Source: Obrimoposthia wandeli
Lineage: Eukaryota
Assembly: GCA_977020255.1 (NCBI GenBank)
Contig: CDROCS010002783.1
Span: forward strand, 1-64,000
Reading direction: 5' to 3'
Length of the DNA: 64,000 nucleotides
The notes beneath the pieces were generated by a model. That model did not search any database, was not told the DNA's origin, and saw only the letters and a list, made by a program, of their open reading frames with translations. A program made the position numbers and the translations under genes. Positions 4,256 to 62,655 of the stretch are shown in pieces; within the stretch, counting starts at the first letter, position 1; each line of letters opens with the position of its first letter.

Positions 4256-4267
4256 TCTAAAATAAAA

Positions 4268-5183: not shown

Positions 5184-5301
5184 CCTTACGATTATGTCAT
5201 GCATGTTTTTGTCAACTGCTGAATGTTATGTAATACAAGCAGCTTGAATTATAATAGAAGTTAATTGCTTGTATGTAAAATAACACACATCATCTTTTTA
5301 G

Positions 5302-5332
5302 TATATAAGGTTCGACGAAGTAGAAATCAGTT
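5302..5332 (+). promoter_or_regulatory. Candidate Pol II core promoter (TATA + Inr) for the PolB gene
   Basis: TATATAAG at 5302 and TCAGTT at 5327-5332, ~25 nt upstream of the ATG at 5355. Confidence 0.4.
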
Positions 5333-5354
5333 CTTCTACAAACAAACTTAGAAA

Positions 5355-9855: not shown

Positions 9856-9899
9856 GATAATGAAGTAGGAGTGAAAGGTAAACTGTTTATATACTATAC

Positions 9900-10561: not shown

Positions 10562-10669
10562 TTTATTGACAAATTTAAAGCTATAAGAGTATTGTTTTTT
10601 TGCAAGTAATGTCTTTGTTTAGGAAATTACACAAGTTTGAAGATGTTTATTAAATAAAATACATTCAAC

Positions 10670-11127
10670 AAGATATTCATATTATAGGGTCTTAACGCCA
10701 AGTATCAAACCCCTTCCCGCTCGCAAAAAATGTTCACGCATAGAGGATTGTATTTGATATAACGTAGCCCTGGAAAAATTTCTGGTTCGTAAACTGCTTC
10801 CACTCTCATACTCTTGCTCATCTTACTCAGGTTTATTGGTTTTTCTAAGTACTAAGTACTGACACTGATTGATTGAATTCTCTCGATTTTGATATTGAAC
10901 GGAAGAGTGCTTTCATCTAGCACAGCTTTACACCCCATGATTCGACATGTTCCAAAATTATATTAAAACTTAAATGTAAAATAAATTACCAGATATGAAA
11001 ATTATAATAGTATAACTATCACACTTGTGTCGGTACTGATGTGGCTTCGAAATGGTAAGTGTTGAATATTGCTTACAACAATTCCCTTGTAATTAATATT
11101 TACAAATTTGATATTATGAAGTAACAT
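10670..11127 (-). pseudogene. TBP-like gene, copy 3 (37-nt intron at the same site, acceptor mutated)
   Basis: MLLHNIKFVNINYKG...YTIIIFIS / gtaattt...ttttg / GTCRIMGCKAVLDESTLPFNIKIERIQS...YEPEFF. Frameshifted. Confidence 0.75.
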
Positions 11128-18229: not shown

Positions 18230-18790
18230 GTTGGGATAAAGAGACTGACGGACTGCTACGTCTCTGAACTCCATTGCAGTGGTCATCGAGATCAGGGTCA
18301 ATTTATGGGCTAGAGATGAAGTGAGTGGTTTATTTGTGTAGATTAACCAATTCATACAGGCAGACCTACTCGCACTTGATCTAGCGAATTAGAAGAAAGT
18401 CAACTGTGTGAAGATGTTGGAGGCGGCCACTGAGAAAAAGAAATGAAACGTATCTAGTGCCGTTGCCGATTTATGGGCCGAAGCGGATAAAGACAATCCA
18501 CAAATCTGTTTGCTTGCTCAATGAATTTGTGAGTATCGCCATAATAAATACAAACTAAAATAAAATGTTTATCACCTTCAGGCGCTAATCAGATAATTTG
18601 ATATGTGAATATGCACAATGAATATTTCATATTTCTATGAGAAATAGTCAGAGTTTTAAAAATTAATTCCACAACTTATTCTCATTGACATCGAAGATTA
18701 TCGAATGCGACAGATACGACGACATGCAAAACTTTAAGAAGCTGTTCACCTCCAACTACTTGAACTTCAGAAACCCCCATGTTATCGAAT
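18230..18790 (+). pseudogene. Decayed paralog of the ankyrin gene block at 43300-44060, introns retained
   Basis: ...ARDE / gtgagtggtttatttgtgtag...catacag / ...ALDLAN*KKVNCVKMLEAATEKKK matches exons 3-4 of the gene at 43853-44472. Downstream sequence matches 43640-43870 and 43310-43430. Confidence 0.8.
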
Positions 18791-22819: not shown

Positions 22820-23700
22820 GGTCACTAAAAGCGGCACCGAAAACCGCTCCAGGAACTGATCAGGTCAAGTATACTGACCTGGTTCTGCCGCACGAGAACG
22901 TCTGAGCGAGCTTTACAATGCTTGCTTTGACAAATGTGAGACACTTGATACATGGCGAACGTTCAAAACGAAGTTCATCCAGAAGCCACAAAAGGACAGG
23001 TATGATGACATAACTACATGGCGGCATATTGCCGTTATGAGTTGTAGTTATAAGATTTTCGCAACAATGATCGCAAGGAGAATGAGCGACTGGGCCTGGA
23101 CGAATCGAGTTGATCAACTTGATCTCAACGGATGTACATCGAGACCGGAACAGGAGTAGCATATATTGCTTTCCTTGATTTAGCCGATGCCTGTAAACTT
23201 CATCTGGGGCATGCTCCAGCGAAGTAATGTGGATCCAACCGCCATCGAACTACTGGCAGACATTTACAAAAAGAATCTGACGAACATCTCCTGTGGTAGC
23301 CAGAAGATTGACCGAATAAGGATCAGACGAGGAGTGCGACAAGGATGTCCTCTCTCGATGCTGCTCTTTAACATGGCCATCAACCCAGTCATTGAGGCGG
23401 TGAAACAATACAGTGGCCCTGGATACAAATTCGATAGCGGCGAAGAAATATGCGTTCTAGCGTACGCAGATGACTTAGCGCTCATATATGGATCTGAGAG
23501 CGGTCTTCAACGAATGATCAATGTAGCAGATGCGACAGCCAGCAGCCTACAACTGACATGCAGGCCAAGCAAGTGTGGGTATTAAGGATCCCTCAACAAG
23601 ATCAATCTCAGGTAAATCACTTCCAACTTCGTGGAGAATATATTCCTGAGGTAGTTAATGATCGACCTTACATATATATAGGAGGCGACAGAAATGCTGG
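22820..23700 (+). pseudogene. Non-LTR retrotransposon RT fragment (R2/NeSL-like), less decayed copy
   Basis: KTAPGTDQVKY; TWRHIAVMSCSYKIF; AFLDLADA; GVRQGCPLSMLLFN; LAYADDLALI; CRPSKC; PYIYIG. Confidence 0.88.
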
Positions 23701-25083
23701 TGCCAAAAATTGAACTCTTGATGAGAAAATAATAAAAGCTTATGTAAAAAAGTATTGGAATTATCGACCGAATTGGGAATAAGTAATTAATCTTTACCTT
23801 CACTATTTACTTTCAAATCCATTTGTTTATATACGTATTTTTTAGTTATTTATAAAACTTAATAATTTTTTTCTTAACATTTTTGAAATACGTACGTTAT
23901 AGTTTTACATAGAATCCGTTTAATCTTGAATCATTGGGTCAGATTTTAGCTTTGATCTCTTTCTAAAAACTGCTTCTAAATTCGGATATTCTGGCCAACG
24001 TTGTACTGCATTATCAACTGAATTTGCGATTAGTAACTGAAAATATAGAACCCTACTTGAGATAAAAAGACTGCCATTCTCAAATTCACATTTGTAATTT
24101 GAACCGTATCGAAAATTGTAATAACTACATATTAAAACAAATAATAAATATTTTTTAAATTACATCAAAAGTTGGATTTTATCACGATTAAGTAACATTA
24201 TCAAATTGAAAGCTTTAGCTAGAAGTATAACAATTGTGCAATTTTATATAAAAATAATTTTAATAAAAGCGATTTTATTAAAAAATATATATTAAATTGC
24301 AACATGTATTCGTGTAAAGTAAAAAAATTATCAAGACTCACTTAAAATCAATTTTCGTAATGCACATATTTCTAAAATGTTCTAAATTTACTTTGATTCA
24401 ATTTAAGGTTACTGTAGATTAATACAATCTTTACGTTGTTTTAAATAAGTTAAAACTTATTTTAAATGTTGTGTTATTCTTAAATTCTAATTATATAAAG
24501 TATTAACATAAAACATAGTTATAAAGTATAGCAAAAGTGTAGAATGCCTTCCAAATATTAATAAAACTCAAAATTTGGTTATCATGAAATATCATGCTAA
24601 TTTTAAATTGAAAATTTTCAAAATATATTTTCTTCGTTTATTTCTAGGATATATGTTTAAAATATTTTAAAAAAGTTTCTACTGCAGTTTTTGCTAGCTC
24701 TTACTTTATGATAAATTTAAAACCTTAAATATATATAAATCGAGATAAGCAACTTAAACAAAGAATATATTTCCATTTAATTATATTTTACTAGAAATTA
24801 TGAAATAAAAAAGATTTATTTGGGATTAATGGAAGATATTTGAGACTTATCATGTCTGTTTCGCATTTTAATATCCTTCCTTTAAAATACTTATTTTCGA
24901 ATATTATTATACAATCAGGATATGTATTGTAACCCTTTAGTATCAAATACGATTGAGATAGTGGATTAATATCTTGTGTCTTCATTATTTGATAATCAGA
25001 AATCATTTCTGCTTCACCCATTCAAAGTTCTGAAACAGATCAGGAAGTCTGTAGATGAATATTATTTGACAATGTATCAGACA
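22850..25083. repeat. Right arm (part A) of the inverted duplication
   Basis: Reverse complement of 1-2205; judged by eye as mid-to-high 90s percent identity. Confidence 0.95.
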
Positions 25084-33841: not shown

Positions 33842-34429
33842 CTAATTACAAAGACTTTCAACATTGGAAAATAAGCAATCATTTTTGAATGCATACTGCT
33901 CACGTACATCCACTTGATTATAATGATGCATATTTATCTTTAAAGTCGGTAAATCATATATTTGATTAGGTAATTCCGATTCATAAAACATTCTTTCAAT
34001 ATCAGCTTCTTTCATACCGTAACTTAATGCTAAACTTTTATTATCAATTTCTAATTTGAAAGCTTGTCCTTTAGTGCGAGTAATACGTATTTTGTCTTCA
34101 TTGCTAAGGTAAATGACATATTTACTATTAGTTGGAGTTATATACTTGACGAAAAATTCTCCATATTTCATTTTCAAACCTGATTCAACTTCAGTTTTTA
34201 TTGATTTCTCCACAACATAATCTATAATTAACCCCCCTTTAATGGATAAAGGAGAATAATAAAATGAAAATTCCGTTAGAGCATCTTCCCAAGCTCCCGG
34301 TAAATTGATTGAGCTTTGATAATCAATTTTGAAACTACTTGCATTATTATCCGGTTGAGTTAATGGCGATCCATTACTTGGTAATACAACATACATTGAA
34401 GTCATTATATTTGAGAAGCTAATATCCAA
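33842..34429 (-). CDS. Polinton minor capsid (penton) protein, N-terminal part
   Basis: MYVVLPSNGS...PDNNASSFKIDYQSSINLPGAWEDALTEFSF matches the recalled penton motif (LPSN..N..S.F..L.G.WEVAL.EI). Confidence 0.8.
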   Translation of the reverse strand: MDISFSNIMTSMYVVLPSNGSPLTQPDNNASSFKIDYQSSINLPGAWEDALTEFSFYYSPLSIKGGLIIDYVVEKSIKTEVESGLKMKYGEFFVKYITPTNSKYVIYLSNEDKIRITRTKGQAFKLEIDNKSLALSYGMKEADIERMFYESELPNQIYDLPTLKINMHHYNQVDVREQYAFKNDCLFSNVESLCN

Positions 34430-35429
34430 CTAGGTTCAGTGTATCCATGCCACTTAACTAGATATTGTTTATGCTTTCCTCGACCCTTTGTTTTCACTAT
34501 TTCTTGAATTCTATATACTTTGGGCTTTGACGGTAATACTTGTAGTTCTTCATGATAAAACTTGCCACTAATTTCATTATTTGTTTCATCTTCAATGAAA
34601 TACATTAGTGGGTTATGACTAGTATCAATTTTAGTTGTTTGGAAAACCTCATCACTCCAATTCTCTTTGAAATTCTTTATAAAAGGAGTAGTACTTATTT
34701 GTGATATTCGAACATAATCTCCAATTTATATTTCGGTTTCTTTACAACCTGTTTTTGATTACGTTGTGACCAAATTTCCATTGCATTTTTATCAGAAATA
34801 TCAACTGGTCTCTTTCCATCTAAGCTTCTATATGGACTATGATTATATGCTCGTATTATTTTGGGTATAACGGTAATCCATCTCTTATTTCCCACTTTAG
34901 TGAAATATCTTTTCAAACGATCTCTCAATGTTTGATCAAACCGTTCTACTAAAGCTGTTTTATATTGAGAAAACACAGAATAATGATTGATACCATGTTT
35001 CTTCAATAAGCCACTAACATTTGTATTGTAAAACTCCTTCCCTTTATCGGTTTGAAAATTAACTGGTTTCACGTCTGAAAATAATTTTTCCATTGCTTTC
35101 AGTACGTCAGAACCTGTTTTAGACTTTAATGGTATAGCTCTTGCTGTTCTGCTGAAAACATCAACACACGTTAAAATATATCGGTATCCATCATTAATAC
35201 GATCATAAGGAATCATTTCCATTAAATCAGCATGCCATAAATCATTAGGTCCGCTAGTCTTGTATGATCTCGTTGGAAAACGACGTCTCATCGGTTTGTT
35301 TAAACTGTACGCTAACTGATTTCCCAGCCATGTTTTGGTTTCCTTTTTTGTCTTCTTCACTTCTTTTGCTAATTTTGAAATTCCAGTATAACCAACGGGA
35401 TGACTTGGATTGAACCATATCTTCTCCAT
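34405..35429 (-). pseudogene. Polinton retroviral-like (rve) integrase with C-terminal chromodomain; one frameshift near 34715
   Basis: WHADL; LTCVDVFSR; FQTDKGKEF; VERFDQTLR; then IGDYVRIS, NWSDEVF, GKFYHEELQ, QYLVKWHGY (chromodomain). Confidence 0.92.
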
Positions 35430-35944
35430 TACAACAGGATGAATTGATTTTTATTTTGAACTTCAGTATAGATGGAAGTGAACTCATACAAAATTAATGT
35501 TTTTAGCTCAAAATACATGTTTATAACCACCATTTTATAAATCTGCTTAATAGAGCCAACTATAGGAACTAGAAAACCAAGAAATCTTCCACTCTGTTTA
35601 TACAATAACTTACGTTTACCAGCTTGTGTTTTAGCTCGAAACATATCAAGAAGTGGCTTTTTATGCTGTTTTAATTTATTTGGATTTTTAACCGATATTT
35701 TACCGGAAACTATTTTCTGGATCATATTTAGCATATCATCAATTACAAACGTAGGAAACGATTTAAGAATAGCAGGTCGTCGATTTGTGGGTGCACGCAT
35801 AAGAAAATTGAAATAGGCAATACTCCTAGATTTCTTATCTGATTTCAGAACAACTATTTGTTTCATATTCTTTCGTTCGTTTAACACTGATTTAAATAAT
35901 GTCTTAGCTTCAGGTTTAATAATTTCCTTTTTGAAAGTCATCAT
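35429..35944 (-). CDS. Polinton basic protein with a QxGG(R)FL amphipathic motif
   Basis: KRKLLYKQSGRFLGFLVPIVGSI. Paralog at 46741-47070 has KQNGGFIGAVIP. Confidence 0.65.
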   Translation of the reverse strand: MMTFKKEIIKPEAKTLFKSVLNERKNMKQIVVLKSDKKSRSIAYFNFLMRAPTNRRPAILKSFPTFVIDDMLNMIQKIVSGKISVKNPNKLKQHKKPLLDMFRAKTQAGKRKLLYKQSGRFLGFLVPIVGSIKQIYKMVVINMYFELKTLILYEFTSIYTEVQNKNQFILL

Positions 35945-36588
35945 CGCGAAACTTGTTTTTTCATTTGTTTATAGATGCTAATACCATTAGGATTGAATAT
36001 ATCAGTTTTAATTCTTAATTCATCGGGACAATCTTGAGTAAAATCAATGAAAATGTATCCATGAGGAGTAGTAGTAGCATCTTGAAATGATTCGATTAAG
36101 AAATTTCTATTATTCGGATAGGCTTGACGTGAAACAAAATCAACAACAGTTTGATCACGTGGATTCTTGAAAAGAACAAAATAATGTACATTTAAATTAC
36201 GAGTTCTATGATTACCACCCTGATGAAATAAATTTTGTGTAATGAAAATAACAGTCACTTCACGATGTTTTGCTATTTTAGTGAATACATTATTGAAATC
36301 ACTCTCTTTATTGGCTTCCTGGTACAAATCATGAATAACAATAACATCATGACGTTGTAATCGATCAGTCCAATTATCATCAAATCCCTTAATGACTTTA
36401 ATATTTTTAATTTTCTTAAACTCAATACTAGTTAAACCAGCTTCTCCATCTCCACCCTGATGCCAATATATCTTATTAAACTTGAATTTAAAATATTTAT
36501 TATTTTGAAGTAATTTACAAATAAAATGGGTTTTCCCACTTCCACTTGATCCTACAATTTGGAAAACCGCATTATTTTTCAATTCCAT
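35941..36588 (-). CDS. A32/FtsK-like packaging ATPase
   Basis: Walker A GSSGSGKT; Walker B VIVIHD (D to H); FITQNLF; LNVHYFVLFKNPRD. Confidence 0.92.
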   Translation of the reverse strand: MELKNNAVFQIVGSSGSGKTHFICKLLQNNKYFKFKFNKIYWHQGGDGEAGLTSIEFKKIKNIKVIKGFDDNWTDRLQRHDVIVIHDLYQEANKESDFNNVFTKIAKHREVTVIFITQNLFHQGGNHRTRNLNVHYFVLFKNPRDQTVVDFVSRQAYPNNRNFLIESFQDATTTPHGYIFIDFTQDCPDELRIKTDIFNPNGISIYKQMKKQVSR

Positions 36589-36681
36589 ATTAAAGGATTA
36601 GTGTAATAGGATAATGTTTATAAGACATAAATATATCAAAAGTAATTTATTATAAAACATAGACAGACTATAAAGAAACAT

Positions 36682-37320
36682 TTACATAGATTCACAGAAT
36701 CGATTAAAAAGACGGATTTGAGAACACATAATATCCGTTGGTGTAGCAATACTACGCCTAGATTTAACAAGGCGAGAAGCAATACTAACAGGCATAGAAA
36801 GAGATAAAAATGCGATAACAATACCCACAGAAAGATCAATCCCATAATGTCCACAAACTAAACCTTTTCCTCCGTTTTCGATATTTTCTTGAATAATACT
36901 ATTAGTTAGTTTATAATACTTCATCACTGTTTCTCTCTTTTTTATGAAAACAGATGTAAACTTTAGTTCTTTATATTTAATATGACCTGAAATAGATGTA
37001 TTGATAACATGAGTAAATCCGGATTTGAGTAGACTAGTTTCATCAAACCCATCACGATAATTAACAATATAAAGTTTATCTGTTAGAATTTCACTCATTT
37101 TTTGACCTGACTAACTTTTCTTTACAAAGTTGACAATATCTAGAATTAAACAATCTATTAAAAAGACGTCTCATATGGTTCATTTCCATACTAGAAGCAT
37201 CGCCTATTATATGCTCTATCAAATCTAATCTATTTAAAAATTTTAATAATCATAGCATCTTCTGTTCTTCCAGGTGTTACTGCTCCTGATTCTGTTTCTT
37301 CATTTAATTTTTCCATCTTT
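36682..37320 (-). CDS. Dual-specificity-phosphatase-fold protein, copy 2 (DSP domain ORF 36682-37098 is open)
   Basis: SEILTDKLYIV, GFTHVINTS, GGKGLVCGHYGIDLSVGIVIAFL, ASRLVKSRRSIATP. The N-terminal extension is frameshifted. Confidence 0.8.
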
Positions 37321-37470
37321 TAAAGAGTTAGATTATTTTATCTTATAATGAATTACTTTGATTGCGGTATGAGACACATTATCTGGAGTAGATTTAATTG
37401 AAACATCATCAACAATCAATTCATTCATCTTTATATTAGAACTAAATAAGCTTTGTTTATATATAATAAA

Positions 37471-38014
37471 TCAATATAAATGTAAATCACATGAGTGAAT
37501 AAGAAAGAAAATACAAGTATGAGAAGATATATTATACAAAATTGTTTCAATAAAATATTCATAGTCTAGAGTTTTTATACCTAATATCTTAATCTTGCCG
37601 CTTGCGAAAATATTTACACATAGCGGATTATACTTGATATATCGCAGTCCTGGAAATATTTCTGGTTCGTAGACAGCTTCAATTCCTATACTTTTGCTCA
37701 GCTTGCTCAGGTTTAGCGCTTCTTCGAAATTTGTACTAACAGTGATTGATTGAATTCTTTCAATTTTTATATTAAATGGTAACTTGCTTTCATCTAATTT
37801 TGATTTACAATCCATTATTCTACACGAGCCTAAATATTATAATTAATTTTTTAATATAAAATTATATACCAGTTTTAAAAATTATTATCGTATAATCTTC
37901 GCATTTGTGTCGATACTGATGCGGTTTTGAAGTGCGAAATGGTAAATCCTTGATACAACCTTTAATCTTTCCCTTATAATTTATATTCACTAATTTAATA
38001 TTATGAAGAAACAT
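37471..38014 (-). CDS. TBP-like protein, copy 2; intact after splicing (exons 38014-37870 and 37829-37471; ~167 aa)
   Basis: MFLHNIKLVNINYKG...YTIIIFKTG / 40-nt GT-AG intron / SCRIMDCK...RIQSITVS...YEPEIFPGLRYIKYNPLCVNIFASGKIKILGIK. Confidence 0.85.
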
Positions 38015-38158
38015 GTTTTAATAATATAAACAAGTTCAGGTTTTATACTAATTTGAAAAATCAATATTATTATTGTTATCCAATTAGAATAGAGAATTAT
38101 AGGATAAACAATTGATTATTTTATATTATTATCTGTTATAATTATGTATGCCGCCAAT

Positions 38159-44559: not shown

Positions 44560-45400
44560 AATATCTCCGGAAGAAATTAAGATTTTTGAATGAAACTTTG
44601 GAATTGGTGGCCAGACATCGATCACAACTTGATTGCAAATTTTCAGTTCCATCGGAGTTTTATTACTTAGTGAATTTTTTTTTTGAATCCCGGCTAAATC
44701 CCGGCTGGAAAAGATGCCTTATTGTAAAATGTATAAACTAACTCTTCATCCATTCTTCTGATGACTGAGCAGAAATTATATTTAAATTGAATATTATTGT
44801 TGAAGCTCATAAAAATTAATATTAATTAAAACAACTTTCAAAATGCATGTAAAATGAAGTTAAAATTTGCCGAAGAAATAATAATCCAAAATAGCTACAG
44901 GAAAATGTAAATAAAACGATTCATAAATCATACCGAGAACAATATATTTTGAAAAATTTAAATGTATAAATGCTGGTAGAACCTGGGTTGCGGGAGAATA
45001 TCTCCGGAAGGAATAAATATTTTTGAATGAAACTTTGGAAACGGTGGCCAGACATCGATCACAAATTGCTTGCCAAATTTCAGTTCAATCAGAATTTTAT
45101 TACTCAGTGAAAAATTTTTTTTGTTGAATCCCGGCTGGAAAAGATGACGTTGCCATTATCAGGTGCCTCTTCAGCAGAAACAAAATGATTTTGTTATATA
45201 AGAGCTGCACCACTTTATTTCTAAACACAATTTAATGTTTATTGTTCAGAGAGCATCTATGAACAATTTTAATGATAATTTAGTTTAGTTCTTAAGATCC
45301 AGGTTGTAAAATGTATAAACTAACTCTTCATCCATTCTTCTGATGACTGAGCACGAATTATATCTAAATTGAATATTATTGTTGAAGCTCATAAAAATTA
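44560..45400. repeat. Diverged local direct duplication
   Basis: 44560-44715 resembles 44998-45147; 44723-44818 resembles 45305-45400. Confidence 0.8.
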
Positions 45401-45911
45401 CGAAATGATCCCGAAAGTTCACTTGCAAATTGCAAAATTATTGAAAACACGATTCGAGAGTTTAAATAATACACAAGTTATATTCTAAAATTATATTAAG
45501 ATATGAAGGATTAAAACAAACCCATTTTCATTTAATAAATTTATGTATTTATTTAAAATTTCATTTAATAAATTTTATTAATTTAATATTTTATTTTCAA
45601 TTGTATTCATATTTTTACAATCATGTGAAATTATGTAACTTTATATTTAGTAACAGTTCGAAGGATTTCAAGAAGTCAACAGCAGAAATATTAAGTTTAG
45701 GAACAATTAAGAAACTAAATTCTAATATTTTTGTCTGAATTTCAGTTAATTAATGTAACTTATTTTGAAGTTGAAGCTCCAGTGAATTGAATTTCATATA
45801 TGAAATATTAGAAGAAGAAAAAACATAACCAATGTGAAGGATGTTTGTGTGTATGATTTGTGAGCTCGGATTCTTTGAGTTTACTGTGAAGGGATTTCGT
45901 GAAATTGATAA

Positions 45912-46370
45912 TCAATAAAAACATTGACAATGTAAATTCTCCTCAAAACATTTATTAAATCCAACATAAAAAACCATATTGGATTCACTCAAAGTCAAAA
46001 GAGGCTGCATTTTCCCGTCATCAGCAAAATATCTATTGAGACGTTTTGAGATATTCCATAGTTCTTTATCTAAAATTGGAGCAATCAAATATCCTAGATC
46101 ATCTCTAAAAACCAGATTGGGATCAGTTTCAAGATGGAAATAATTTTCTTCATATACATAATCAGGAATGTAGAATCCCAAAATATTTTTCAATTGATCA
46201 ATATCAGATTTTGTTAAAATTTCGATTAGATATTTATTCTCCACTTTTGATATTTTCACAGGATTCATAACTCGTATAATTTGATGCCTCTTTAATATAT
46301 TACATAGTTTTCCTTTCGAAATTCTTTCTGGATAATAAAAATTTCCTACATATCTCAGAAGAGGATCCAT
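45912..46370 (-). CDS. Hypothetical 152-aa intronless protein next to a Polinton fragment
   Basis: Long open frame in very AT-rich DNA; no family recognised. Confidence 0.45.
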   Translation of the reverse strand: MDPLLRYVGNFYYPERISKGKLCNILKRHQIIRVMNPVKISKVENKYLIEILTKSDIDQLKNILGFYIPDYVYEENYFHLETDPNLVFRDDLGYLIAPILDKELWNISKRLNRYFADDGKMQPLLTLSESNMVFYVGFNKCFEENLHCQCFY

Positions 46371-46740
46371 TGTAACATAAGGAAACTGATTGATAAGAAC
46401 CTTTTAGTTGATTCATTCCATGATGCTACTAAACAAGCACATTGGTATATATTTATTGATTTTACACAAGCTTGCCCAGATAATTTACGTGTTTTAACAT
46501 ACATACTTATTTCTGAGGGAGTAATTCTATAAACAAATTGACAACAATTATAAAAAATAAATTTGCAATTCCTTTTAAGAAGTTGATAGTGAAACGTAAT
46601 CAAAAAGTAAAGCCTAATAAATCAAAAAAATAATCATTAAGAAAAAAGAAGTGAATAAATTAATCAAATCTGTAGTTCGAAATAAAAGAAAACTTAAATG
46701 GGTTTGAATATAACAATATTCAAATTGAACTTGTTTTAAA

Positions 46741-47070
46741 ATGAAGAAAATACAAAGAAGCATACCCTATTTTAAAGCTTTGGTCAAAGCCTCTTCTCAT
46801 AAGAGAATAATTATTCTTAAAGTATTTCCATCTTTTGTTGTAGATGATTTATTAGAAGTTTTGTATAATATAGTTTTGGGTCGAATAAAAGTAAGTAAAT
46901 GTAAAAATGTATGAAAGAAATATAGAAAAACACTTCTAGATATTGCTAATCTAAAAAGTAAAAAAAGGAAACGAAATATTATTCTTAAACAGAATGGTGG
47001 TTTCATAGGGGCTGTTATTCCAGTTGTTGTTTCAATTATCAGTAGTATTATAGCTGCGACACGTACATAA
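46741..47070 (+). pseudogene. Polinton QxGGF protein paralog (one in-frame stop)
   Basis: RSIPYFKALV...FPSFVVDDLL...ILKQNGGFIGAVIPVVVSII; aligns with 35429-35944. Confidence 0.75.
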
Positions 47071-47144
47071 ACAATTATTTCAAAAATCAGCTAACCCTTT
47101 ACCTAAATTTTAATTTTCTATATATTCAAATTTTTGTAATATAG

Positions 47145-47636
47145 AAGATATGGTTCAATCCAAAAGATCCAATTGGCTACACAGGAGTTTCAAAATTAGC
47201 AAAAGGAACAAAACAGAATTACAAGAAAACTCAGAAATGGATGAGCGATCAGTTAGCCTACAGCCTTAACAAGCCGATGAGAAAAAGGTTTTCAACTAGA
47301 GCTTAAAAACCAGCGGTCTTAATAATTTTTGGCAAATGGATTTGATGAAGATGATTCCATATTCTTCCATTAATAAGGGATATCGATGTATTTTAACATG
47401 TATTGATGTATTTAGCAGGTTTGCTCGTGCAATTCCAGTTAAAGCAAAGTCTTCAATAGTTATGCTTGAAGCAATTACAGAAATATTAAAAGAGGATATT
47501 CCACAAAATGTGCAAACTGATTTAGGAAAAAAAATTATAATAAGCAAGTTCAATCTTTATTTAAACCAAATAATATAAATCACTACTCTGTGTTTTCACA
47601 GTATAAAGCAGCAGTAGTAGAAAGATTTAATCGTGT
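47145..47636 (+). pseudogene. Polinton integrase N-terminal fragment, cut by the Gypsy insertion
   Basis: IWFNPKDPIGYTGVSKL, LAYSLNKPMRKRF, LTCIDVFSRFARAIP, HYSVFSQYKAAVVERFNR. Confidence 0.85.
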
Positions 47637-47639
47637 AAG

Positions 47640-50600
47640 GGTTGTTATTGTTGGTTGATCTCCTGAGCGTGGAGTTGTCGATTGGATCGGGGTTGTCGAC
47701 AGGATTGGTGGGATCTCATCATGAATTTTACAAGGAGTGGCTTTTACTGATGTTAGCAGTATCGAGGGCGTCAATTATGCGGTTGACTGCAACGCCGGCA
47801 CAACCTCTCTGTTGATTGTTTCACCGTCATGTTCCACGATTACTGGCGGATTATTTCTCGGAAGTGAGGCTATGTGCTGACTGACGCGCACTTCATGAAA
47901 TGGAGGCAGAGTGGACCTCACTATTTATGTGGAGAAGGGAATGAACTGAGGGAGGTATTTCCGGTTTCTAATGATGACTTGATGCAATACTTGTCATGAT
48001 CTAACACCTCCGTCACCATGCCTGTTCTATCCCACCTTTTGGGATGGTTTCCTGGGCCATTCTAAACAAAGCACTTGTCACCAACATAAAGGGGCAGTAG
48101 TGGACGGGTGCTAGCATCAAGGGTCTCTTTTGATCGAGTATAACGTGCACGTAGAGATGATTCTTTCAGAGACCAGGCCTCTCGCCAAGTCATTTTAATA
48201 TGTGGGTTGGATAACTTTTCCAGTCGATTCACAAAGGACATTGAATCTCGCAGGGGCTTTCCAAATACGATCTGAGAGGGTGATATTTCGCAGTCTGGAT
48301 CATAGATGTTCCGCTGTTGCAAGAGCGTCCGGAGGAATCGGTTGTTGTTGAGGTTACAAGTGGGACCCGTGTTAGATCTGCGGAGTCGTTTTGTGGCTTT
48401 TACGGCAACTTCAGCTCTACTGTTGGACTGTGGATGATAAACGGAGGATACGCAGTGGATGAAAACCCATCAGAGGAAAATATTCTGAGTTTAGCTACTT
48501 GTAAATTCTGGTCTGCCATCACTGGAGAGTTCTGCTGGAACCCCGAAGGTTGCAAAAACTGATCGAAGACATCCGGGAGGGAAACAGAACACCTCGGTCC
48601 AACAGGATAGTCTATCACCAATGACTAGATAGTGGTACCCAGCAAAATCAAAGTAGTCGGCATAGATAGACTCGAATGGTGTTGAGGGGGTGACGTGGGA
48701 ATGGCTGGGAGAGATGGCTGTGATGGGGCGTTGAGATTGCAGTCAGTGCAGGCTGCCCGATCAGCGTGTATATCTGCTGTAATTCCTGGCCAAAACCCAA
48801 TGGTGCGAGTGCGAAGCTCCATTGACGACGTGCCCTGATGGGCAGCATGGATGTTGTCTAGAACGGTGCGGTGCAGTGATGGTGATATTACGACTCGATC
48901 CATATACATGACGGCGCCATCGGATAAGTATAGGGCCTCGCGAAACTGCCAGAATGGTGCAGCGTTAGAAAAGTTAGGAAGGTTTCCGAGTCGTGGTTAC
49001 AACGCACACCGGCTGCTAGAAGAGCTGGCCTCCCATAGCGATCCGGCATATTTGAGATGGTGGCGGGACTATATGCTGATCACCATCATGTCAGCTGATG
49101 TCTACAACAATCTTCCGCTTCCACAGATCAGCGCAGATACAGTAGAGGAATATTTTCGCATGCATTAGACAAACAATCCATACGTGACACAAGTATCACC
49201 AGTTAGTAACCACATCAGCTGACACTGCATGAAGCCTATAAGCATAGTCTTCTATTGGGAATCTTCACAGTGCAGAAAGATGATGGGGATAGCGTTGATC
49301 TCGACGCACGAGTGCATACTCTCGCGAAGGTTGGATATGCACCGTACGCATCAATCAAAGCCTCAAGACAGCCAAAGAGATTTATACATGATACAACTGA
49401 AGCCACACACATCAACGCATGTGTTCCAGCCCTCTTATCCAGAGGCATCATAGAGAAGACAAGCAAAGGACCTTTCTGCTCACAAATAAGGCTTGTACTC
49501 AAAGCAAATTCACAATTATGACGTTTCCAAAATTGTTCATGAAAATCCCAAATATGGGTGAAAAGTTAAAGACCATTCCAAAAGGTTTGGCTGCAGCAAA
49601 CATTGATTTGACTGGCACATTTTACCAAATGCCCTTGGACAAAATGTCAAGAAATTTGACAAATGTTTGGCACCAGAACCAATACTCTCGATTCACGAGA
49701 CTGCCGATGCGTCTGAGGCAAAGTCCCGCCATTTTACAGTGGACATTGACGACAATAATGAAAGTTTTCAAAGGATCTGGCAAATACCATTAATTCATGT
49801 CCATATCGATGATATTTTGATTATAGCGCCTATGAAAAGTCCTATGTAGTAACATCTTTAAAAATGTTTAGACAAATGGAACCTACAAGTAAATCTGGAA
49901 AAGTCGCAATTGTCTCCTGCGCACCAAGTAGTATACTGTGGTATAAACCTTGATTTGACGACACAGCAAGTGAGCTTGTCAAAGGAAAAGTGGAGCATGT
50001 ATAAACAGCTAATACTCGAGAAAGACTATTCGCCACAGGCAATAGGATACGCGAAATACGTGGCAAACGTTTTAAGATGACCTTCTGTCGGTAAATTATT
50101 TACATGCCGATTTGCAGGAGAACATTTTTGATCTTTTCAAAAGACAAGCAGCTACTTGGAAGTGGAATGAGACTCCACATTCAAAATTATGGGCCACAGA
50201 TGCTACCCCCCACATCTATCGCTATAATGCAGTTGAAACCAGTTCAAACTGTACATGCAGCACTAAAAATCCCCGAGCAGAATATTTATATTCAGGAAGC
50301 TAAGGCTCTCCTCTGGGCCTGTTGGATGGGGAAAACGGGAAGCACAATTCTCTGCGACAATCAAGTTTTGGTATGGACAACCAAGACCAAGAGGATTCCC
50401 AGCGATATGCAGGAGTGGTGGATTATCGTGTCAGTTCAAATGTTAGTCACAACTAAGCGAATAAAGGTACAGTTTATTCCAACGGAGCAAAACCCGGCAG
50501 ACAAGCCATCGTGTGACATGCTTCGCACACAGGAGCAGGAAACAAGCTGGATTACAGCATTCCAGTAGATGACCTATAATTCTATTACATAACCAGTGTG

Positions 50601-52283
50601 TGTTTGCGTGTGTTTCCTGCTGAGGAAGATTTTTATACCTAAAATTTCTTTGCCTAAACTTTTTTTGCCTTAAAGTTTTCTCAGGTTTACATCTTTTGTG
50701 TTTTTGTTAAGCCTACCGGTCACATCACTCTCTGCCAGCCACTTACAATTCCAGGCGTGATGTTATTGGTGGCGTTTTTATATATAAAAGCTAGCTAAAT
50801 ACATAGAAATTGCCAGTCTCTCTCATTCTAGTTTATAATTATAAATTATAATTGCCTATGGCGAATAGTCTTTTTCAGAGACAAACTGGGAGCCGGTCAG
50901 GATAATGTGCCATCCGTCCTGGCAACAGTCCAGTACTTGAAGGTGATATGGGCATTGCTTTAGAATAAGGAAATATCCAATTCCCTGTGTCGACCAGTCA
51001 GGTCTGAGACAAGTGCTTTTCGACGCGTCGAAGATTCGTACGCCCTATTTGATGGCTTTGATGATGGCGTACTTCGAAAAATTGAATGCTTCGTCGAGTT
51101 ATTGAAACCAGGAGAATTTGTTTTTCGGACTAAGGTGTGGTCTTAAAGAGTGCATAATTTCTTCAGTTCACCAGGCCAAACCAGCTACGAATGCGCCACT
51201 GATTGTGGAGATCCTCATCATAGTGAATTGTATCATCCACGCACCTCTCTTTCCGTTTGAAGTCAGATAATATTGTGTCGAAACGACGGTTGTAGCCATC
51301 GCCGGATGACACGAAACCTTGAGGGTCACGACAGTACTGCCATCTACCGAATGGGGTGATGAATGTCGTTAAATGTCGATCAGATTTACGGAGCGGGGCT
51401 GAATGGTAACCGTTCCAGGCATCAGTGACTGTTTTCCAAGTGTCACCGGGTATACCGGGAAGGGAGATTCAGTGGCAAATGAATCTTGTGCGCAGTGTCG
51501 GTTAAGGGGTGAGAGAACAAGGGTTCTCCGAGGGGTACCATCGTGTTTCCGCGTAACTATCATCCTATGGCACCAGGTTGAAGGCTCACCATAAGGAACT
51601 AGTTCGATGACTACAAGGGCTTCGTCACGGAGTAAGTCTTGATGTACCTTTTCTTGTCAGTGCACTGGAATCGATGCCACGGTGTGACAGATGCGAGGGG
51701 TGGCAGATTCATTTAAATGTATTTCGACCGGAGGGCCATCCATTGTTGGTAATGGCCGATCTGGGCAGATGTTGAAAGTGGATGACGAGTATCGGTCTAC
51801 TAACCAGTTGCGCATCTTCTCATTATTTTCGGACCGACATGAAAATTGGAGTGATGAAGGGTGTTCTGTCAGTGCCTGATGCTGAGGGTAACCGCAGTCC
51901 TCCCACTGGTGACTCCTGAGCCACATCCGTCGTTCATTGCTCTGATTGCAGCGTTAGCAATATATGTTTTTGCACAGACGTTTTTTGTTGTTTGTGCTTC
52001 CTATAGTTAGAAAGTCGTCTAGCAAGATGCCGAGGGCTAGCAGTGATTCATGTGATAAGAACAGGTGGTGGATTTGACTGCTCACGTAGATCATGGCGCG
52101 GTCTTCGAGTACACCAAAGAAAGCTCCGTCTATATGTATTTTCGAATTATTGGCAGCTTGTAGACGGAGGGAGACTGGGCGGAGGTCATTGCGAGAAAAT
52201 CCGTTTGCTAAGTATTGATCAAGTGAACAATCATCTGATTGTGTTCCACTGTCGGTTACAGCTTCAACATCGGAAAATATCAA
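47640..52283 (-). mobile_element. Ty3/Gypsy pol remnant (protease-RT-RNase H / integrase), interrupted by a foreign RT element
   Basis: Protease VTDSGTQS (~52260); RT WCHRMIVTRKHDG, DAWNGYH, PQGFVSSGDGYN, CVDD; RNase H TDWS; integrase HAAHQG, WPGITADI, CTDC, SPSQIVFGKPLRD. Confidence 0.9.
49000..50568 (+). mobile_element. Decayed RT-RNase H element, hepadna/nackedna/HEART-like (DIRS-like not excluded)
   Basis: LLSRGIIEK; IDLTGTFYQMPL; LPMRLRQSP; HIDD; VNLEKS; CGINLD. RNase H: WATDATP, IYIQE, ILCDN, FIPTEQNPADKPS. Confidence 0.8.
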
Positions 52284-53049
52284 TAATTTGATGTTTTTGA
52301 AAATATTACTTATTCACAAATTTTCGCTCCTTGGCTACTTTTACTTGTTGAAACTAAAAACCACTTTCTTAATTTGTCAATTTGATTGCTTATGGGAAAA
52401 ATTGAAAATTTTGTGTAAAAGTTGGGTTTTTTCCTCAAAGACTGACTTTATCCACTACTTCAATTTTGTAATTATTAAATTATTAATATTAAATCTAACA
52501 CTTATAGTAGAAATTTCAGTCCAACTGTATCATCTGAACCCAATCAAAAAAACATTTGATTTTAAAAATTGAGAATGGAAAATTTTCAAATGAATAATTA
52601 ATACTTTAGTGAAACTTGTAATTTCAGACTATTGCAACTTTAATTTCACATAAAAATAAAATAAATAATATACACCACCAAATTTTAATTGTAGTTTTTG
52701 TGGAAATTTTTTTAAAACAGTAGCATCAAAAATTTCACTTGAAAAAAATTTAAACGGTAATATTATCAATTTTCATATCCAACAATATGAATTATTTAAA
52801 TCAACTTAATAATGAAAAAATTGATCTGTCAATCAACAATTTTAAAATAGTCAAAAAATATAATTTAAATTCAAAAAGAGAATATGAATGAATATTTAAA
52901 TAATTACATTTATGTTTTTAAAGCCAAATTTAAATAGTTATAATAGACAAGTTAATTTATTAAAATCTTTTATATATTGAATTAAATTAAATGTCAGATT
53001 TTTCTATCCTAGTGATTCTGAATTTTATGCAATGAAATTATCTTCTGAA

Positions 53050-55038
53050 ATCAGTATTATATGGAGAAATACTGGAGAAAAAGCGAGAATCTATTATATT
53101 TAAAGGACTGTTTAAGATGTGAGTCATTAAGGTTGATAGAAAACTTGGGTTTTCTGGGACGGTCTATGAGGTAGATAATGAAAAACTGTAGCGAAGGTAT
53201 ACAGGACAAGAGAAGAGGTATAACCTCATTTTGAAGGAAATAGAAAGTATCAAAGCTGTACGGCATGAAGAGGTCTGAGATCAAGAACGGTTTTCAGAAT
53301 TCCAGGAGACTGTTATAGTGAAATTGACAGCGACGAGGAAAGAAGTCGAGTTGGAAACCGTATGTTATTTTACAAAGTTTTAAAACTAATTCCGCAAACA
53401 GCCATTATCAGTTGGGGAGGAAACATCCACACCAATAAGGAGCCAGAAAATATGGGAGTATTAGCCACTTGGACGCGAGAGGAACTTAAAGGGAAGCGGT
53501 AAACTGATAGACAAAAAGGAGAGAGACAAGAGGGTATATCATATCCAAGGACTGTTAACCCCAAATTTATCAAGGCAAAGAAAATGTCTAAAATGTGAGT
53601 AAAATTACGAACTCAGTCAATGTTCAGCCTTTGAGCAATTATCGTTAGAAGATCGGTGACAGTAGGTTATGAAGAATGTTGAAATATGTACCAGAAGCAA
53701 AATGGTTACTGATAGAGTTAAATTTCAAAGAACATTAAAATAACAAATTTTTAAATAACTATCCTTAAAAAATATAAAGCAAATAAATAACAATTGCTTA
53801 AGTTATGCATAAAGTTTATACCAAAATAGTTATTAAAATGTTATATTGAGAATAATAGTTTTAAAATATTAATTAATTTTATTTAAAATTCACCTTTTTA
53901 CGATAACATTTTTAGTGATTTCATGACTACGTTAAGTTTGGATGCAACAGCATAATCAGTGGTTCAAAACGTTTGTTGCAAATAGAGTGGCAAATATCCA
54001 AAAAATCACGATATACAAACATAGGTAGTGCAGTTGGAGATGGTGTTTGACTTGACAACAGACGGATTTTTGCGAGCCTTAAAATGGTTTATGGGAAGAC
54101 TGGGTAAACCACAATCAATCATCTTCGATGGCGGCACCAAATTTAAGGGAGCAACGAATGTCGTACAGAAACTCAGAGTGGATGACTAAAGGATGTGAGA
54201 AGTGTTACAAAAAGAAGAGATTCGTTGGGTATTTACGCCACCTGATGCACCTCATTTTGATGGAGTGTTTGAGAGCTTGATCAAGAGCGCCAAGAAGGCG
54301 ATAGGAATCGTACTGTTGAACGCAGCTTTTAAAGATGCGGAGTTAATGACGGTGTTCGTGGAAGCAGAGGGACTGTTGATTTCACTAGCAATAGCGTTCC
54401 AATCTGCAAATAGCATGGAAGAATTACCGAGAGGAACATCTGGAAAAAGAGACCGCATTAACCGAATGAGGAAAGCTTCTACATCGATGGTGTATAATTC
54501 AGGAGGTGGTAAATCATATGTGGAAGAGATGGATTTGCGAAATGGTACCTACTTGGGTTAGAACAGCTAAATGAAGAAGTACTGAAAAAGCGTTGCGGGA
54601 AGGACAACTGGTATGGATATTAGAAAAATTACCAAGGAGTATGGCTACTAGAAAGGATCAAAGAGGTAAGGAGAGACTGGAAGTGAGAAGCTATGTAGTA
54701 GTTGTAGAGTTATGAGGAGGGGAAGCATGAGTAAAGGAGAGGAGGCTCAAAGTTGGGCAGTAGGTCATCTCCCGAATGACTATAGGTTGATAAACCAGGA
54801 GATCTGGTTTGATCAAGGGCAGGGGAATGTTCTAACGCGAGGTCGGATATTTTGAAAAAAGTAAATGTGTTTATAATAATTAATAAGAGTTTTTTTGTAT
54901 AGTTTTAGGAAATGTTTGTTTAAAAGAGTGTTTTGTTGACATTGACTAAAGAGATTTGAATGTGTAAAAGTGTAAAGAAGTTGAATAAATTGATGAATCC
55001 AGCGATCCTTTTATTTTTGATGGAAACACAAAACAACA
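53050..55038 (+). mobile_element. BEL/Pao LTR retrotransposon 3' remnant
   Basis: FKTFVANRV; LEMVFDLTTDGFLRAL; DGGTKFKGA; RWVFTPPDAPHFDGVFESLIKSAK. Confidence 0.85.
54828..55038 (+). repeat. Putative 3' LTR of the BEL/Pao element
   Basis: Purine tract aagggcaggggaa immediately upstream; TGTT...AACA termini; AATAAA inside. Confidence 0.65.
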
Positions 55039-59280: not shown

Positions 59281-59680
59281 CCTAATTGTCAAGATGACAA
59301 TAAAAACTTACTCCTAATTGTCAACTACGGACAATGAGCGAACCGAATTGTCAGCTAGTGGACAATGAGTCTTACCGAATTGTCTACTAGGGACAATGAA
59401 TATTTATCCGAATTACCAACTAGGGGCAATGAACGAACCTAATTGTCAGCTAGGGACAATGAATCTTACGGGAAAAAACGTCTGGTAGGTTTCCTAATTG
59501 TCGCTGGGGACAATGAATAAAGGTCCGATCCTAATTACCAACTAGGGGCAATGATTGTGCTAAAGAGACAATGATCCTAATTACCAGCTAGGGGTAATGA
59601 ATTTGTTTATTATTTTAAAACGTAGAATTACCAACTAGGGGTAATGAAAGTAACCTAATTGCCTACTAGGGGCAATGAAT
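59281..59680. repeat. Array of 12 imperfect palindromes, consensus CCTAATTRYC-N5-8-GRYAATGAA
   Basis: Units seen directly, spaced ~25-55 bp apart. Confidence 0.92.
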
Positions 59681-59777
59681 GAACCTAGTCGGTGGTCTTA
59701 CCAGTTACTCGCTGATTCCGTCGACTAGCGGGATGTCCGATGTAGATCCGTAGGTAGTTTGTGGAATCGGCTTCGAG

Positions 59778-60180
59778 TGACTTCGACTTTATCTTTCAAT
59801 TTGACTTCGACTCTAATTTTCAATTGACTTCGACTTTATCTTTCAATTTGACTTTGACTTTAATTTTCAATTGACTTCGACTTTAATTTCAATTTGACTT
59901 CGACTTTAATTTCAATTTGACTTCGACTTTAATTTCAATTTGACTTCGACTTTAATTTCAATTTGACTTCGACTTTAATTTCAATTTGACTTCGACTTTA
60001 ATTTCAATTTGACTTCGACTTTAATTTCAATTTGACTTCGACTTTAATTTCAATTTGACTTCGACTTTAATTTCAATTTGACTTCGACTTTAATTTCAAT
60101 TTGACTTCGACTTTAATTTCAATTTGACTTCGACTTTAATTTCAATTTGACTTCGACTTTAATTTCAATTTGACTTTCAA
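59778..60180. repeat. 23-bp minisatellite (GACTTCGACTTTAATTTCAATTT), ~17 units
   Basis: Period 23 (59942, 59965, 59988...). The first four units are 24-25-bp variants. Confidence 0.97.
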
Positions 60181-61028
60181 TTTGTCGACTAATGATCTAG
60201 AACAGTTTATTTTTAATTGATAATCACACAAAAAATGTCACCTGTCTATTTCGATTTTCTCCTCGTAGTTCCTGTGCCGTTACCTCTTAGTCGATTCCGT
60301 ATTTGTGTTTGTGCTAAATTGTCGCTTCCTTATATATGAACAGTCGTGTCAATCAAATGACAGCTGTTAACCGTAGTTGCTGAAAGTTCCTGTTGAGTCT
60401 CCGAAGCCTGTCAATCAATGACAGCTGCAAAAAATAAATTTTAGTTATTGCACGCAAATGTGCTTACCTTTCTTCTTCTTGATTGACGGTTTTAATTAAC
60501 CGTTTTTCTTTCTTAATTTAGTGTCTTTTCCTTAATTACTTTTTGCAATTGTCCCTTTTGGGTTAATTAATTTAACTTTTATACATTTTCGCATAATACA
60601 CGACCTTCGTGGTCCTCCTAATTTTACCCTAATATTTCACTAATTTTACTTCTAAAACTCAACTTAATATTTTAATTTAATTTTCGACCTTGCTTTCAAG
60701 GATTTTTATTTTAGTATTTAATCAACTAAAATATTTAATTTTCTTAATTCTCAACCTTAACATACCTCGGGGGTTCCAAAAAAGTTACGTCCCCGGAACG
60801 TATCGATTTTACTTAAACAAGCCTTTGGCTGTTGTTTTTAGGTTCATCCCTACAAAATCAATCATTCAACTTCAACAAACATGCCCAAAAAAAAATTTTC
60901 CAAAACCCGGTTTTTAGTGGAAAATTATAATGCATAAGTTGGAGCATGTCTCAATTTATACATTATTACTACGACAACCAAAAAAAATTATACAAGGGAA
61001 AGGATCAAGGGTGATTGTCGGGGATTTG

Positions 61029-61532
61029 TCAATTGTTCCGGTCTCTCAAAAACAGCAAGACCTGCTCCAGTGGTAGTTCTGGATACGATGGTGGGCCGCC
61101 ATCGTACAGTATCATCTGCTGGCGCATGGTGAGGTGTTGACTCGGGTGGAAAATAGTTGTATATCGCCCGTGTATTCCGCGATTTCCGAGCCATATTTGA
61201 CGGCCACGCTGCCATGAGCGGGGGTCGCGAGTTGACCGGTATTTCTCGCGGAGGGCGAGTTTTGCATCGCGACGGCGCGCGATACAGTCGGGGCACTGGC
61301 AGTGCTCGCCACCAATACAGCTGGTGAGCGAATGGGTGCCCTTGTGGCGCCCTCGACACTGTAGTGTCCATTCCGCGAAGGGAGTACGGCAAAAGGGGCA
61401 ATTGATATGTCCTTCGGGTCGAAGTCGGGCCCAAGTATATAGGCAGGATTCGTGGAACTTGTGGCGGCAGCCGACAGGGGATGCTGATGCCGCCCAAATT
61501 TTCTCCATGCATACAGCGCACTTCATCTGCAT
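61029..61532 (-). CDS. RING-H2 protein 1 (167 aa) with a second Cys motif and PPSY
   Basis: CAVC...CRHKFHESC..TW...CPFC; then C-x5-CQCPDC; GGPPSYP near the C-terminus. Confidence 0.85.
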   Translation of the reverse strand: MQMKCAVCMEKIWAASASPVGCRHKFHESCLYTWARLRPEGHINCPFCRTPFAEWTLQCRGRHKGTHSLTSCIGGEHCQCPDCIARRRDAKLALREKYRSTRDPRSWQRGRQIWLGNRGIHGRYTTIFHPSQHLTMRQQMILYDGGPPSYPELPLEQVLLFLRDRNN

Positions 61533-61866
61533 GAGAAAATAACTCCTTTCAATTTGGGGTTCACCGTTCTCATCGTTAATTTAAATTTTATTTCAAAATG
61601 AATCTTTAGTTATCTAATCCTACCGAGTTTTGTTTCGATTTTAGGCATGTTTACGCATTCACACTAAGCATAAAAATTGTCTTTTTTAGAAATTCAGTAT
61701 AATAATTACAATTTCAGTTAAACATCATACATAAAAATGGTAATGGTCAATTTACAGTTCACAAGATTATATAATTATGATTACAATTATGGTAGCTAAT
61801 TTATCGCGGTATGCGATACACAGGGTAGTTCATGATGTCACGTTCAAGTCAGAAAGTTACCTTCGA

Positions 61867-62172
61867 TTATTGTTGGGGATTGGGCTGGCCTGTGCTTCGC
61901 TCCTCCACGCAGAACGAGCACCAGCAATCGCAGATGGTTTTCCAGCAGTGTACGATGGGTACCACTGCTTGGAGGCTGTCTTGGTTGTACACGTAGTGTA
62001 CTGAGAAGGTCGCTCTGCACATTGGGCAGGTTGGGAAGTCGAGGGGGTTGTTGCTGTTGGCAATGGGGATCCACGTCTCGAGGCATTCGACGTGGAAGAG
62101 GTGGTCGCAGTTGTTGGGCTTGGTGTAGAAGTCCACGATGCTCTCGTAGCAGATGGAACATTCTCCAGACAT
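61867..62172 (-). CDS. RING-H2 protein 2 (101 aa)
   Basis: CSIC...CDHLFHVEC..TW...CPMC; then CWKTICDCWCSFC. Confidence 0.9.
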   Translation of the reverse strand: MSGECSICYESIVDFYTKPNNCDHLFHVECLETWIPIANSNNPLDFPTCPMCRATFSVHYVYNQDSLQAVVPIVHCWKTICDCWCSFCVEERSTGQPNPQQ

Positions 62173-62232
62173 TACTGTGGGAGGGTTGATGTTGAATTTG
62201 GGCTCGATTGAGGACTGGTGGTTGTGTGATCT

Positions 62233-62532
62233 TTACACAAAAGTGGTCTGATTTTGTCGATCTGACAAACAGTAATAACACCAACACTCTCCGAAATTCT
62301 TCCAGCAGAATACCACCTGTACATATACATCCCTTTGGTTGGGTTCTAACATGACGAATCTTGCGAATTGTCTTCTGCATATAGGGCAACGAGGGTATGT
62401 TGGGTGTCCGAACTGTCCATAAGTTCTGATCCATGTCGATAAACATTCCTCGTGGTGTAAATGGTTGCAGGTTTCGGGTCTTGTTCTTCGTTCGGTTAGA
62501 TCTTCTAAACATATTGGGCATTCTTCGGCCAT
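62233..62532 (-). CDS. RING-H2 protein 3 (99 aa)
   Basis: CPIC...CNHLHHEEC..TW...CPIC; then CWKNFGECWCYYC. Confidence 0.9.
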   Translation of the reverse strand: MAEECPICLEDLTERRTRPETCNHLHHEECLSTWIRTYGQFGHPTYPRCPICRRQFARFVMLEPNQRDVYVQVVFCWKNFGECWCYYCLSDRQNQTTFV

Positions 62533-62655
62533 TCTAAATACATGATGATGATTAAATTCTACATGAGTTTTATATACTTCTACTATTTGTACAATCGCTT
62601 CTAGATATTTCTACATATTTCACACACTAATTTATCTACAACCTCCTCTGACTCA

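Follow-up and report, generated by a model that had tools for sequence, protein, structure and literature searches.

A probable HEART-grade reverse transcriptase-RNase H gene, decayed and nested within a Gypsy retrotransposon

HEART retroelements were reportedly defined by Gong and Han in 2018. The passages of PMC12440569 consulted place them nearer to hepatitis B-like viruses than any other non-viral elements, and describe few sampled sequences and an unresolved mobilisation mechanism. Here we ask to which lineage a decayed polymerase gene with hepadnavirus-like motifs belongs, and how it came to lie where it does, in a 64,000-nucleotide stretch of DNA that was analysed as a whole (the window). 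An initial annotation of this stretch had proposed a HEART-like or proto-nackednavirus-like insertion relevant to hepadnavirus origins.

The decayed gene and its nearest relatives

A three-frame translation of positions 49100-50950 located all the RT and RNase H motifs listed in the initial annotation, each of them on the plus strand, colinear from RT to RNase H and spread over three frames. The RT motifs are DLTGTFYQMPL (near 49605), LPMRLRQSP, HIDD (49802) and NLEKS, and those of the RNase H are ATDATP (50193), IYIQE (50284), LCDN (50350) and FIPTEQNPADKPS (50473-50511). Translation and frame-aware alignment delimit a decayed RT-RNase H gene at 49411-50568 (+), interrupted by several stops and by five to six frame changes, which the alignment places near 49520, 49760-49790, 49825-49865, 50060-50082 and 50209. 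The gene can be divided into a decayed reverse transcriptase (49411-49990, +; frame changes near 49520 and 49780, and a disrupted stretch, 49825-49865, that contains stops at 49847, 49850 and 49859), a thumb/connection region (49991-50189, +; a frame change and a stop near 50060-50085) and a hepadna/HEART-type RNase H (50190-50568, +; ATDATP, IYIQE, CDN and NPADKPS, with a frame change near 50209), the last recognised from PF00336, phmmer and its fold. The final reading frame closes at 50568, 19 codons past the last motif, without a methyltransferase tail. Upstream of the gene, 49102-49410 (+) gave no BLASTP match and no Pfam family of note, and 48950-49300 scored at chance level against all nine proteins tried; within 49102-49410, the portion 49288-49410, included in the frame-aware alignment to protein P0008, may be the pre-RT region.

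The only Pfam family matched by the last ORF is PF00336, which represents the C-terminus of hepadnaviral polymerases; at 17.8 bits (E=0.0022) the match falls short of the 22.4 cut-off. The RT pieces gave weak RVT_1 matches (best E=0.0005). The C-terminal 118 residues were also modelled (pLDDT 74.6), and a structure search with this model retrieved generic RNases H (E values of 0.001-0.1) and no hepadnavirus among its top 50 matches; the model confirms the predicted fold, not the family. Using phmmer, we compared the 157-aa ORF with 1.84 billion representative proteins and obtained seven matches at E<=0.001, five of which are RT/RNase H proteins (P0001, P0002, P0005, P0006 and P0007; four of the five above the PF00336 cut-off). 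The remaining two, P0003 and P0004, were dropped as repeat artefacts. Of 4504 longer candidate proteins screened with a profile, 11 matched at E<=10: P0008 (684 aa, on a 468-kb ENA contig) and P0009 (1033 aa, on a 3805-bp Logan contig), both with E<1e-89, three DIRS-like proteins and six Gypsy proteins. The DIRS label of the three (P0010, P0011 and P0017) is inferred from their RT-RNase H-methyltransferase layout, with weak Dam matches in two of them. An RNase H profile search among proteins of near length matched two of 2583 candidates, both known already. A word-seeded search with the RT piece yielded 23 candidates, none at E<=0.1; the PDB sequence search gave no match for the ORF and a weak retroviral pol RNase H match for the profile; the ESM Atlas returned nothing but unnamed or generic RT clusters, and none of the 73 pattern matches of a GTDB scan was confirmed.

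The nearest relatives are P0008 and P0005, from ENA contigs, and P0009 and P0001, from Logan contigs, with 26-30% identity to the element; they were gathered by searching from its own RNase H, so their grouping with it is partly ascertained. In frame-aware alignment over RT and RNase H, P0008 and P0009 both scored 230, whereas the alignments of the three DIRS-like proteins (114, 71 and 45) and Gypsy (86) covered the RT only. Split by part, the element scored 87-150 against these two long relatives, P0008 and P0009, compared with shuffled-protein maxima of 39-53. For the RNase H alone, the four HEART-like proteins reached 100-132, five others scored 30-39 and shuffled proteins at most 51, all three DIRS-like proteins and Gypsy being at chance level; for the RT alone the gap was small (P0008 150, P0009 120, DIRS-like P0010 114). 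Given the PF00336 and RVT_1 matches, the alignment score of 230 and the part scores above the shuffled maxima, the hepadna-like RT-RNase H match exceeds chance.

Like the element, these four relatives carry H[IM]D[DN], end their RT-RNase H soon after NxADxPS (P0008 and P0009 within a few residues of the final RNase H motif), share its GII-to-K spacing and have no TP or Dam family; nor was a core family found in P0008 or P0009. They differ in their open frames and in long, low-complexity N-termini for which no homolog was seen in the element. The open HEART-like protein P0009 occupies most of its contig and is a candidate for a nearly complete unit. No family was recognised in its N-terminal 600 aa, which did not fold; the model of P0009 as a whole (pLDDT 36.9) was too poor to read.

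In a maximum-likelihood tree of RT plus RNase H with 13 rows (the RNase H-only P0002, P0006 and P0007, the two artefacts and P0018 being left out), the element groups with the four HEART-like rows (support 100/99), its own branch being long (1.72). Frameshift repair and trees of this kind had been proposed beforehand, and they reject a grouping with DIRS on RT plus RNase H (AU p=0.0014, against three DIRS-like rows, with no Ngaro/PAT row identified), the RT alone speaking weakly: in the RT-only tree, from which P0005 was dropped and for which a non-LTR RT of the window served as outgroup, no starred group holds the element, and the AU test against DIRS gave p=0.046. None of these trees includes a hepadna, nackedna, PnNV, published HEART, VIPER or caulimovirus sequence, and placement relative to the viruses is a by-eye comparison.

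Such a comparison with the HEART_Ixodes rows from ticks, in the portion of Data Set S6 of PMC12691608 consulted, shows P0009 and P0001 to match almost motif for motif. With the seven Ixodes RT rows the element shares the H that replaces the Y of YxDD (five of the seven rows; H-x-D), FTRLP, the R two places past the LPxG glycine (LPxxxR) and a short loop, from K to R, before the R..D motif; like HEART in this source, it occurs as a decayed genomic copy with no integrase seen. It departs from these rows in HIDD, where they have HLDN or YIDN, in LPM..SP and FPK..PN..IPKG, where they have LPF..AP and PxF.L.PL, and in its host, which is probably neither tick nor insect. The RNase H is of hepadna type, PF00336 being its sole family match, below threshold in the element and above it in the relatives. 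Because the nearest relatives, the tree and the by-eye motif comparison all agree, we regard the element as very probably HEART-grade. On its mixture of HEART-side and virus-side motifs, it is HEART-grade but does not closely replicate the lineage known from ticks.

The insert, its Gypsy host copy and the surrounding window

The initial annotation had given the coordinates 49255-50568; the insert is larger, about 1.8 kb (approximately 49090-50876), and is placed antisense inside a minus-strand Gypsy pol that had been missed. Several elements are nested here, with the insert innermost. The outermost is a Maverick/Polinton remnant (46392-47637, +) with an ATPase end, a small ORF and an integrase, recognised by an rve match and by tblastn using Maverick ORFs from elsewhere in the window as queries; Gypsy cuts its integrase at 47637. 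The Gypsy pol consists of an integrase side (47638-49088, -), with an H2C2 zinc finger (PF17921, E=5e-8) and core and tblastn matches to P0012/P0014/P0016, and of a protease, RT and first half of an RNase H (50877-52290, -; RVT_1 E=1.2e-5 and translation, left end approximate). The Gypsy RNase H is broken off just past its GSQF motif at 50877 and the integrase resumes below about 49090; the left boundary between Gypsy and insert is approximate (49000-49100), with a turn in strand composition at 48998-49100. The motif spacing is 164-171 aa in three of six stored Gypsy proteins, those in which both motifs were found, and about 90 codons remain here, so that the insert would have replaced roughly 75 Gypsy codons, the reference spacing being that of a different Gypsy clade.

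Both junctions carry inverted copies of the insert's own sequence. At the left, 49089-49101 (-) repeats 49212-49224 in inverted orientation at 13 of 13 positions, a match length reached in none of 300 shuffles; this arm contains a palindromic core and is therefore weaker than the right junction. There, 50851-50876 (-) is a 26-nt inverted copy of the coding stretch 50018-50043 (+), identified as its template by self-comparison, with 24 of 26 matches compared with 20 for the best of 300 shuffles, and an AT-only palindromic filler that can form a hairpin lies beside it (50832-50850; self-match 50825-50852). We found no target duplication of at least 5 nt over the end positions tried, no LTR-like repeat between the insert ends (best 18 of 30), no integrase downstream of the RNase H and no second copy of the element within the window. 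The insert is thus without the hallmarks of an LTR retrotransposon, namely paired LTRs, an integrase past the RNase H and a target duplication. Scanned against Pfam in all six frames, 48900-50900 and 45001-55004 revealed no recombinase, TP or core family; the sensitivity of these scans is low, and the long frames of the second also lost the element's own weak matches. The earlier observation that neither recombinase nor LTR is seen agrees with these scans and with the terminal-repeat comparison.

Templated inserts accompanied by a deletion are a mark of microhomology-mediated end joining. Capture by break repair would account for an insert that lies antisense, for the missing Gypsy sequence, for the absence of a target duplication and for the inverted junction pieces, and we lean slightly towards it. 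Double-stranded linear DNA from reverse transcription would have been end-joined into a double-strand break of an old Gypsy copy, entering the genome passively, with no enzyme of the element's own; a double-stranded donor is proposed because the junction pieces occur in both orientations. Template switching during reverse transcription is a capture mechanism reportedly described in work on insect EVEs. That Gypsy itself took up the fragment in this way and inserted the chimera would suit an insert that sits antisense inside Gypsy pol and replaces Gypsy sequence, but the main insert and the pieces at its junctions have opposite orientations, so that both strands or snap-back would be needed, and the window is so dense with nested elements that landing in Gypsy requires no special cause; we consider this origin unlikely. 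Break capture, by comparison, resembles what is described for integrated HBV dslDNA, which in the excerpts of PMC5408681 and PMC8398950 inserts at breaks by NHEJ/MMEJ with its core promoter separated from its ORF. The case in PMC5408681 has in common with the proposed event the insertion at a break, the lack of an integrase, the promoter at the far end and the rearranged junctions; it concerns a different family, and the mechanism for the element is derived from one old germ-line copy.

The window has about 33% GC and holds Maverick, Gypsy, BEL and non-LTR remnants, a set that, given the range of BEL elements, points to an animal host. An ankyrin-repeat gene at 44500-43900 (-), the most informative locus as regards the host, has, by reading, GT-AG introns of 41, 42 and 39 nt, and its decayed paralog at 18283-18780 (+) one of 39 nt; introns of about 40 nt are unlike those of typical insects and ticks. 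Judging from these four introns of one gene family, the host is probably an animal that is neither insect nor tick, and BEL, Maverick and the 39-42-nt introns bear out the earlier view of a non-vertebrate genome. Maverick/Polinton remnants at 3700-11150, 33842-38030 and 46392-47637 encode PolB, ATPase, integrase and chromodomain, and a phosphatase plus TBP-like block is repeated three times in them at 66-78% identity. Two non-LTR retrotransposon copies (1-2171, -, and 22909-25083, +) are 97% identical, a BEL/Pao-type integrase remnant with a DUF5641 match lies at 54000-54700 (+), and 59296-60184 holds tandem arrays that include a 23-bp unit present 17 times at 95% identity. Three tandem intronless RING-finger ORFs at 61029-62610 (-) may have been carried by a large DNA element.

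The 3' region and comparison with hepatitis B-like viruses

The gene is followed by a T-rich non-coding region (50569-50780, +) with a 15-nt tandem repeat in 3.4 copies (50629-50679) and a hairpin at about 50711-50773. The fold of 50690-50790, the best of five windows folded, has z=-3.66 (0 of 200 shuffles). An epsilon-like role for the hairpin was rejected: it has no Rfam support and lies upstream of the TATA box, unlike the epsilon of RMPV. The TATATAAAAG that had been reported about 200 bp after the P-like ORF was found at 50781, 213 nt past the ORF stop at 50568, as the only plus-strand copy in the window. An initiator-like YCAKTY follows it by 28 nt, and the two together span 50781-50818 (+), a pattern chosen after seeing the sequence. 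When the region is shuffled, the exact TATA 10-mer turns up in 0.17% of cases and a loose TATA consensus in 12.5%; three matches to the TATA plus initiator pattern were reached in 6 of 100 whole-window shuffles. The insert ends about 50 nt beyond the TATA box. In RMPV the order is P stop (95), a TATA-like sequence (about 223, read by eye) and DR1 (259), and the RNA of RTPV ends about 33 nt past its own TATA, corresponding to the position at which the insert stops.

Because the TATA box lies behind the gene and the insert ends some 50 nt further on, the donor would derive from an RNA with terminal redundancy that, as in hepadnaviruses, was transcribed from a circular or tandem template; this is the weakest step of the proposal. 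That the template was circular is a tentative suggestion, to which we give somewhat less than even chances. The linearised circular genome put forward in the initial annotation fits the TATA position and the nearby insert end, as read from one decayed copy.

The same region bears on whether the element is itself an endogenised, proto-nackednavirus-like basal member of the Blubervirales, its TP and core lost by 5' truncation. By eye, FPK..PN, IPKG and DL are separated by 7 and 6 residues, just as in the SSNDV and BWNDV-2 rows, while PnNV rows are closer than tick HEART rows to its LPM...SP and FYQ.PL; ATDATP is identical in avian hepadnavirus rows, as the initial annotation had stated, and the TATA behind P is as in RMPV. 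Such an origin is nevertheless improbable. The catalytic motif is HIDD, not the YMDD of the Blubervirales rows seen, which deviate in YLDD (two GFPV rows), YMHD (one) and decayed eAHBV rows; the R occupies the HEART position of LPxGxR; by eye, the G-x-SP glycine pattern and the SD[GTN] motif of these rows are missing; and, by eye count, the GII motif stands 19 residues before the conserved K in the element, P0008 and P0009, compared with about 48 in RMPV. The TP-RT hinge is absent, and Pfam finds no TP family in the roughly 300 nt of insert that survive upstream of the RT. No core gene was seen in the Pfam scans of an insert that lacks its 5' part, no DR1/DR2 pair rises above the AT-rich background (best 11 of 14; decay could hide an 11-14-nt repeat), no epsilon was matched in Rfam at E<=10, and Rfam and tRNA scans of the window gave no matches. 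Nackednaviruses and proto-nackednaviruses, as described in the parts of PMC12691608, PMC11551314 and PMC5604429 consulted, share with the element a related RT and RNase H and a TATA downstream of the P stop, and possess TP, hinge, YMDD, core and DR1/DR2, none of which was found in the 5'-truncated element. Of the two affiliations first offered for the element, the HEART-like one is thus upheld by relatives, tree and motifs, and the proto-nackednavirus-like one is opposed by HIDD and by the missing TP hinge and DR pair.

Two stretches near the RT were compared with TP. YKHSLLLGIF, near 49240, was dropped as a TP-like candidate, having no Pfam support, and the GII motif before the RT being the better fit. 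The pre-RT LL..GII stretch (49411-49470) resembles by eye the avian hepadnavirus TP motif L.EAGILYKR in the rows seen of Data Set S9, which suggests that this motif may originally have been the N-terminal part of the RT, the spacer having come in between afterwards.

A relic of a tyrosine-recombinase retrotransposon (DIRS, Ngaro or VIPER-like) without its recombinase, whose right end and complementary internal stretch would be a DIRS-type ICR, is very improbable: DIRS ICRs are indeed complementary to element ends and the VIPER RNase H groups with that of hepadnaviruses (PMC6681497, in the sections consulted), and the evidence against DIRS from the RT alone is weak, but the RNase H is at chance against all three DIRS-like proteins, RT plus RNase H rejects the grouping, the gene ends without a methyltransferase tail, the internal stretch belongs to the coding sequence and is flanked by sequence unlike the left end (best 9-11 of 14), no DIRS-type ITR plus ICR or split direct repeats are arranged at the insert, and no recombinase was found in 10 kb (45-55 kb; an insensitive scan of a truncated copy). 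The DIRS-like proteins do share a related RT and a similar pre-RT spacing with the element, and differ in an RNase H that cannot be aligned to it and in DAS..[GA]WGG and a methyltransferase tail, which it lacks. On the features tested, the element is neither DIRS nor proto-nackednavirus. A virus-like element with a hepadnavirus-like polymerase and a captured DAM domain, described in the text seen of bioRxiv 10.64898/2026.05.21.726589, is possibly a further HEART-grade member.

Proposed origin and implications for HEART elements

We consider it probable that the locus holds a dead, 5'-truncated HEART-grade copy, passively captured at a break from a terminally redundant RNA product. The element would represent the RT-RNase H gene of a lineage next to the Blubervirales, without terminal protein, integrase or recombinase. 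It preserves the 3' end and both junctions, in one decayed copy with no direct placement relative to the viruses. If HEART copies generally enter by break capture, target duplications should be lacking, the junctions should be of repair type and vary between copies, and the ends should cluster shortly after the TATA box.

The element probably adds a divergent lineage, mixing HEART and Blubervirales motifs, to a group of few sequences, and probably does so from a new host group. Apart from the word "invertebrates", no mention of HEART in hosts other than insects and ticks turned up in the literature searched; the defining 2018 paper fell outside the search scope, and its host list and anatomy could lower this novelty. 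A bolder conjecture, which we hold to be doubtful, is that the element stands for a separate lineage between arthropod HEART and the proto-nackednaviruses, in a non-arthropod and possibly early-branching animal, and that this lineage already replicated in the form of an unintegrated circle, and had a hepadnavirus-like promoter downstream of its polymerase, before the TP hinge was gained. If this were true, HEARTs would be fossils of integrase-free, pararetrovirus-like replicons and not transposons.
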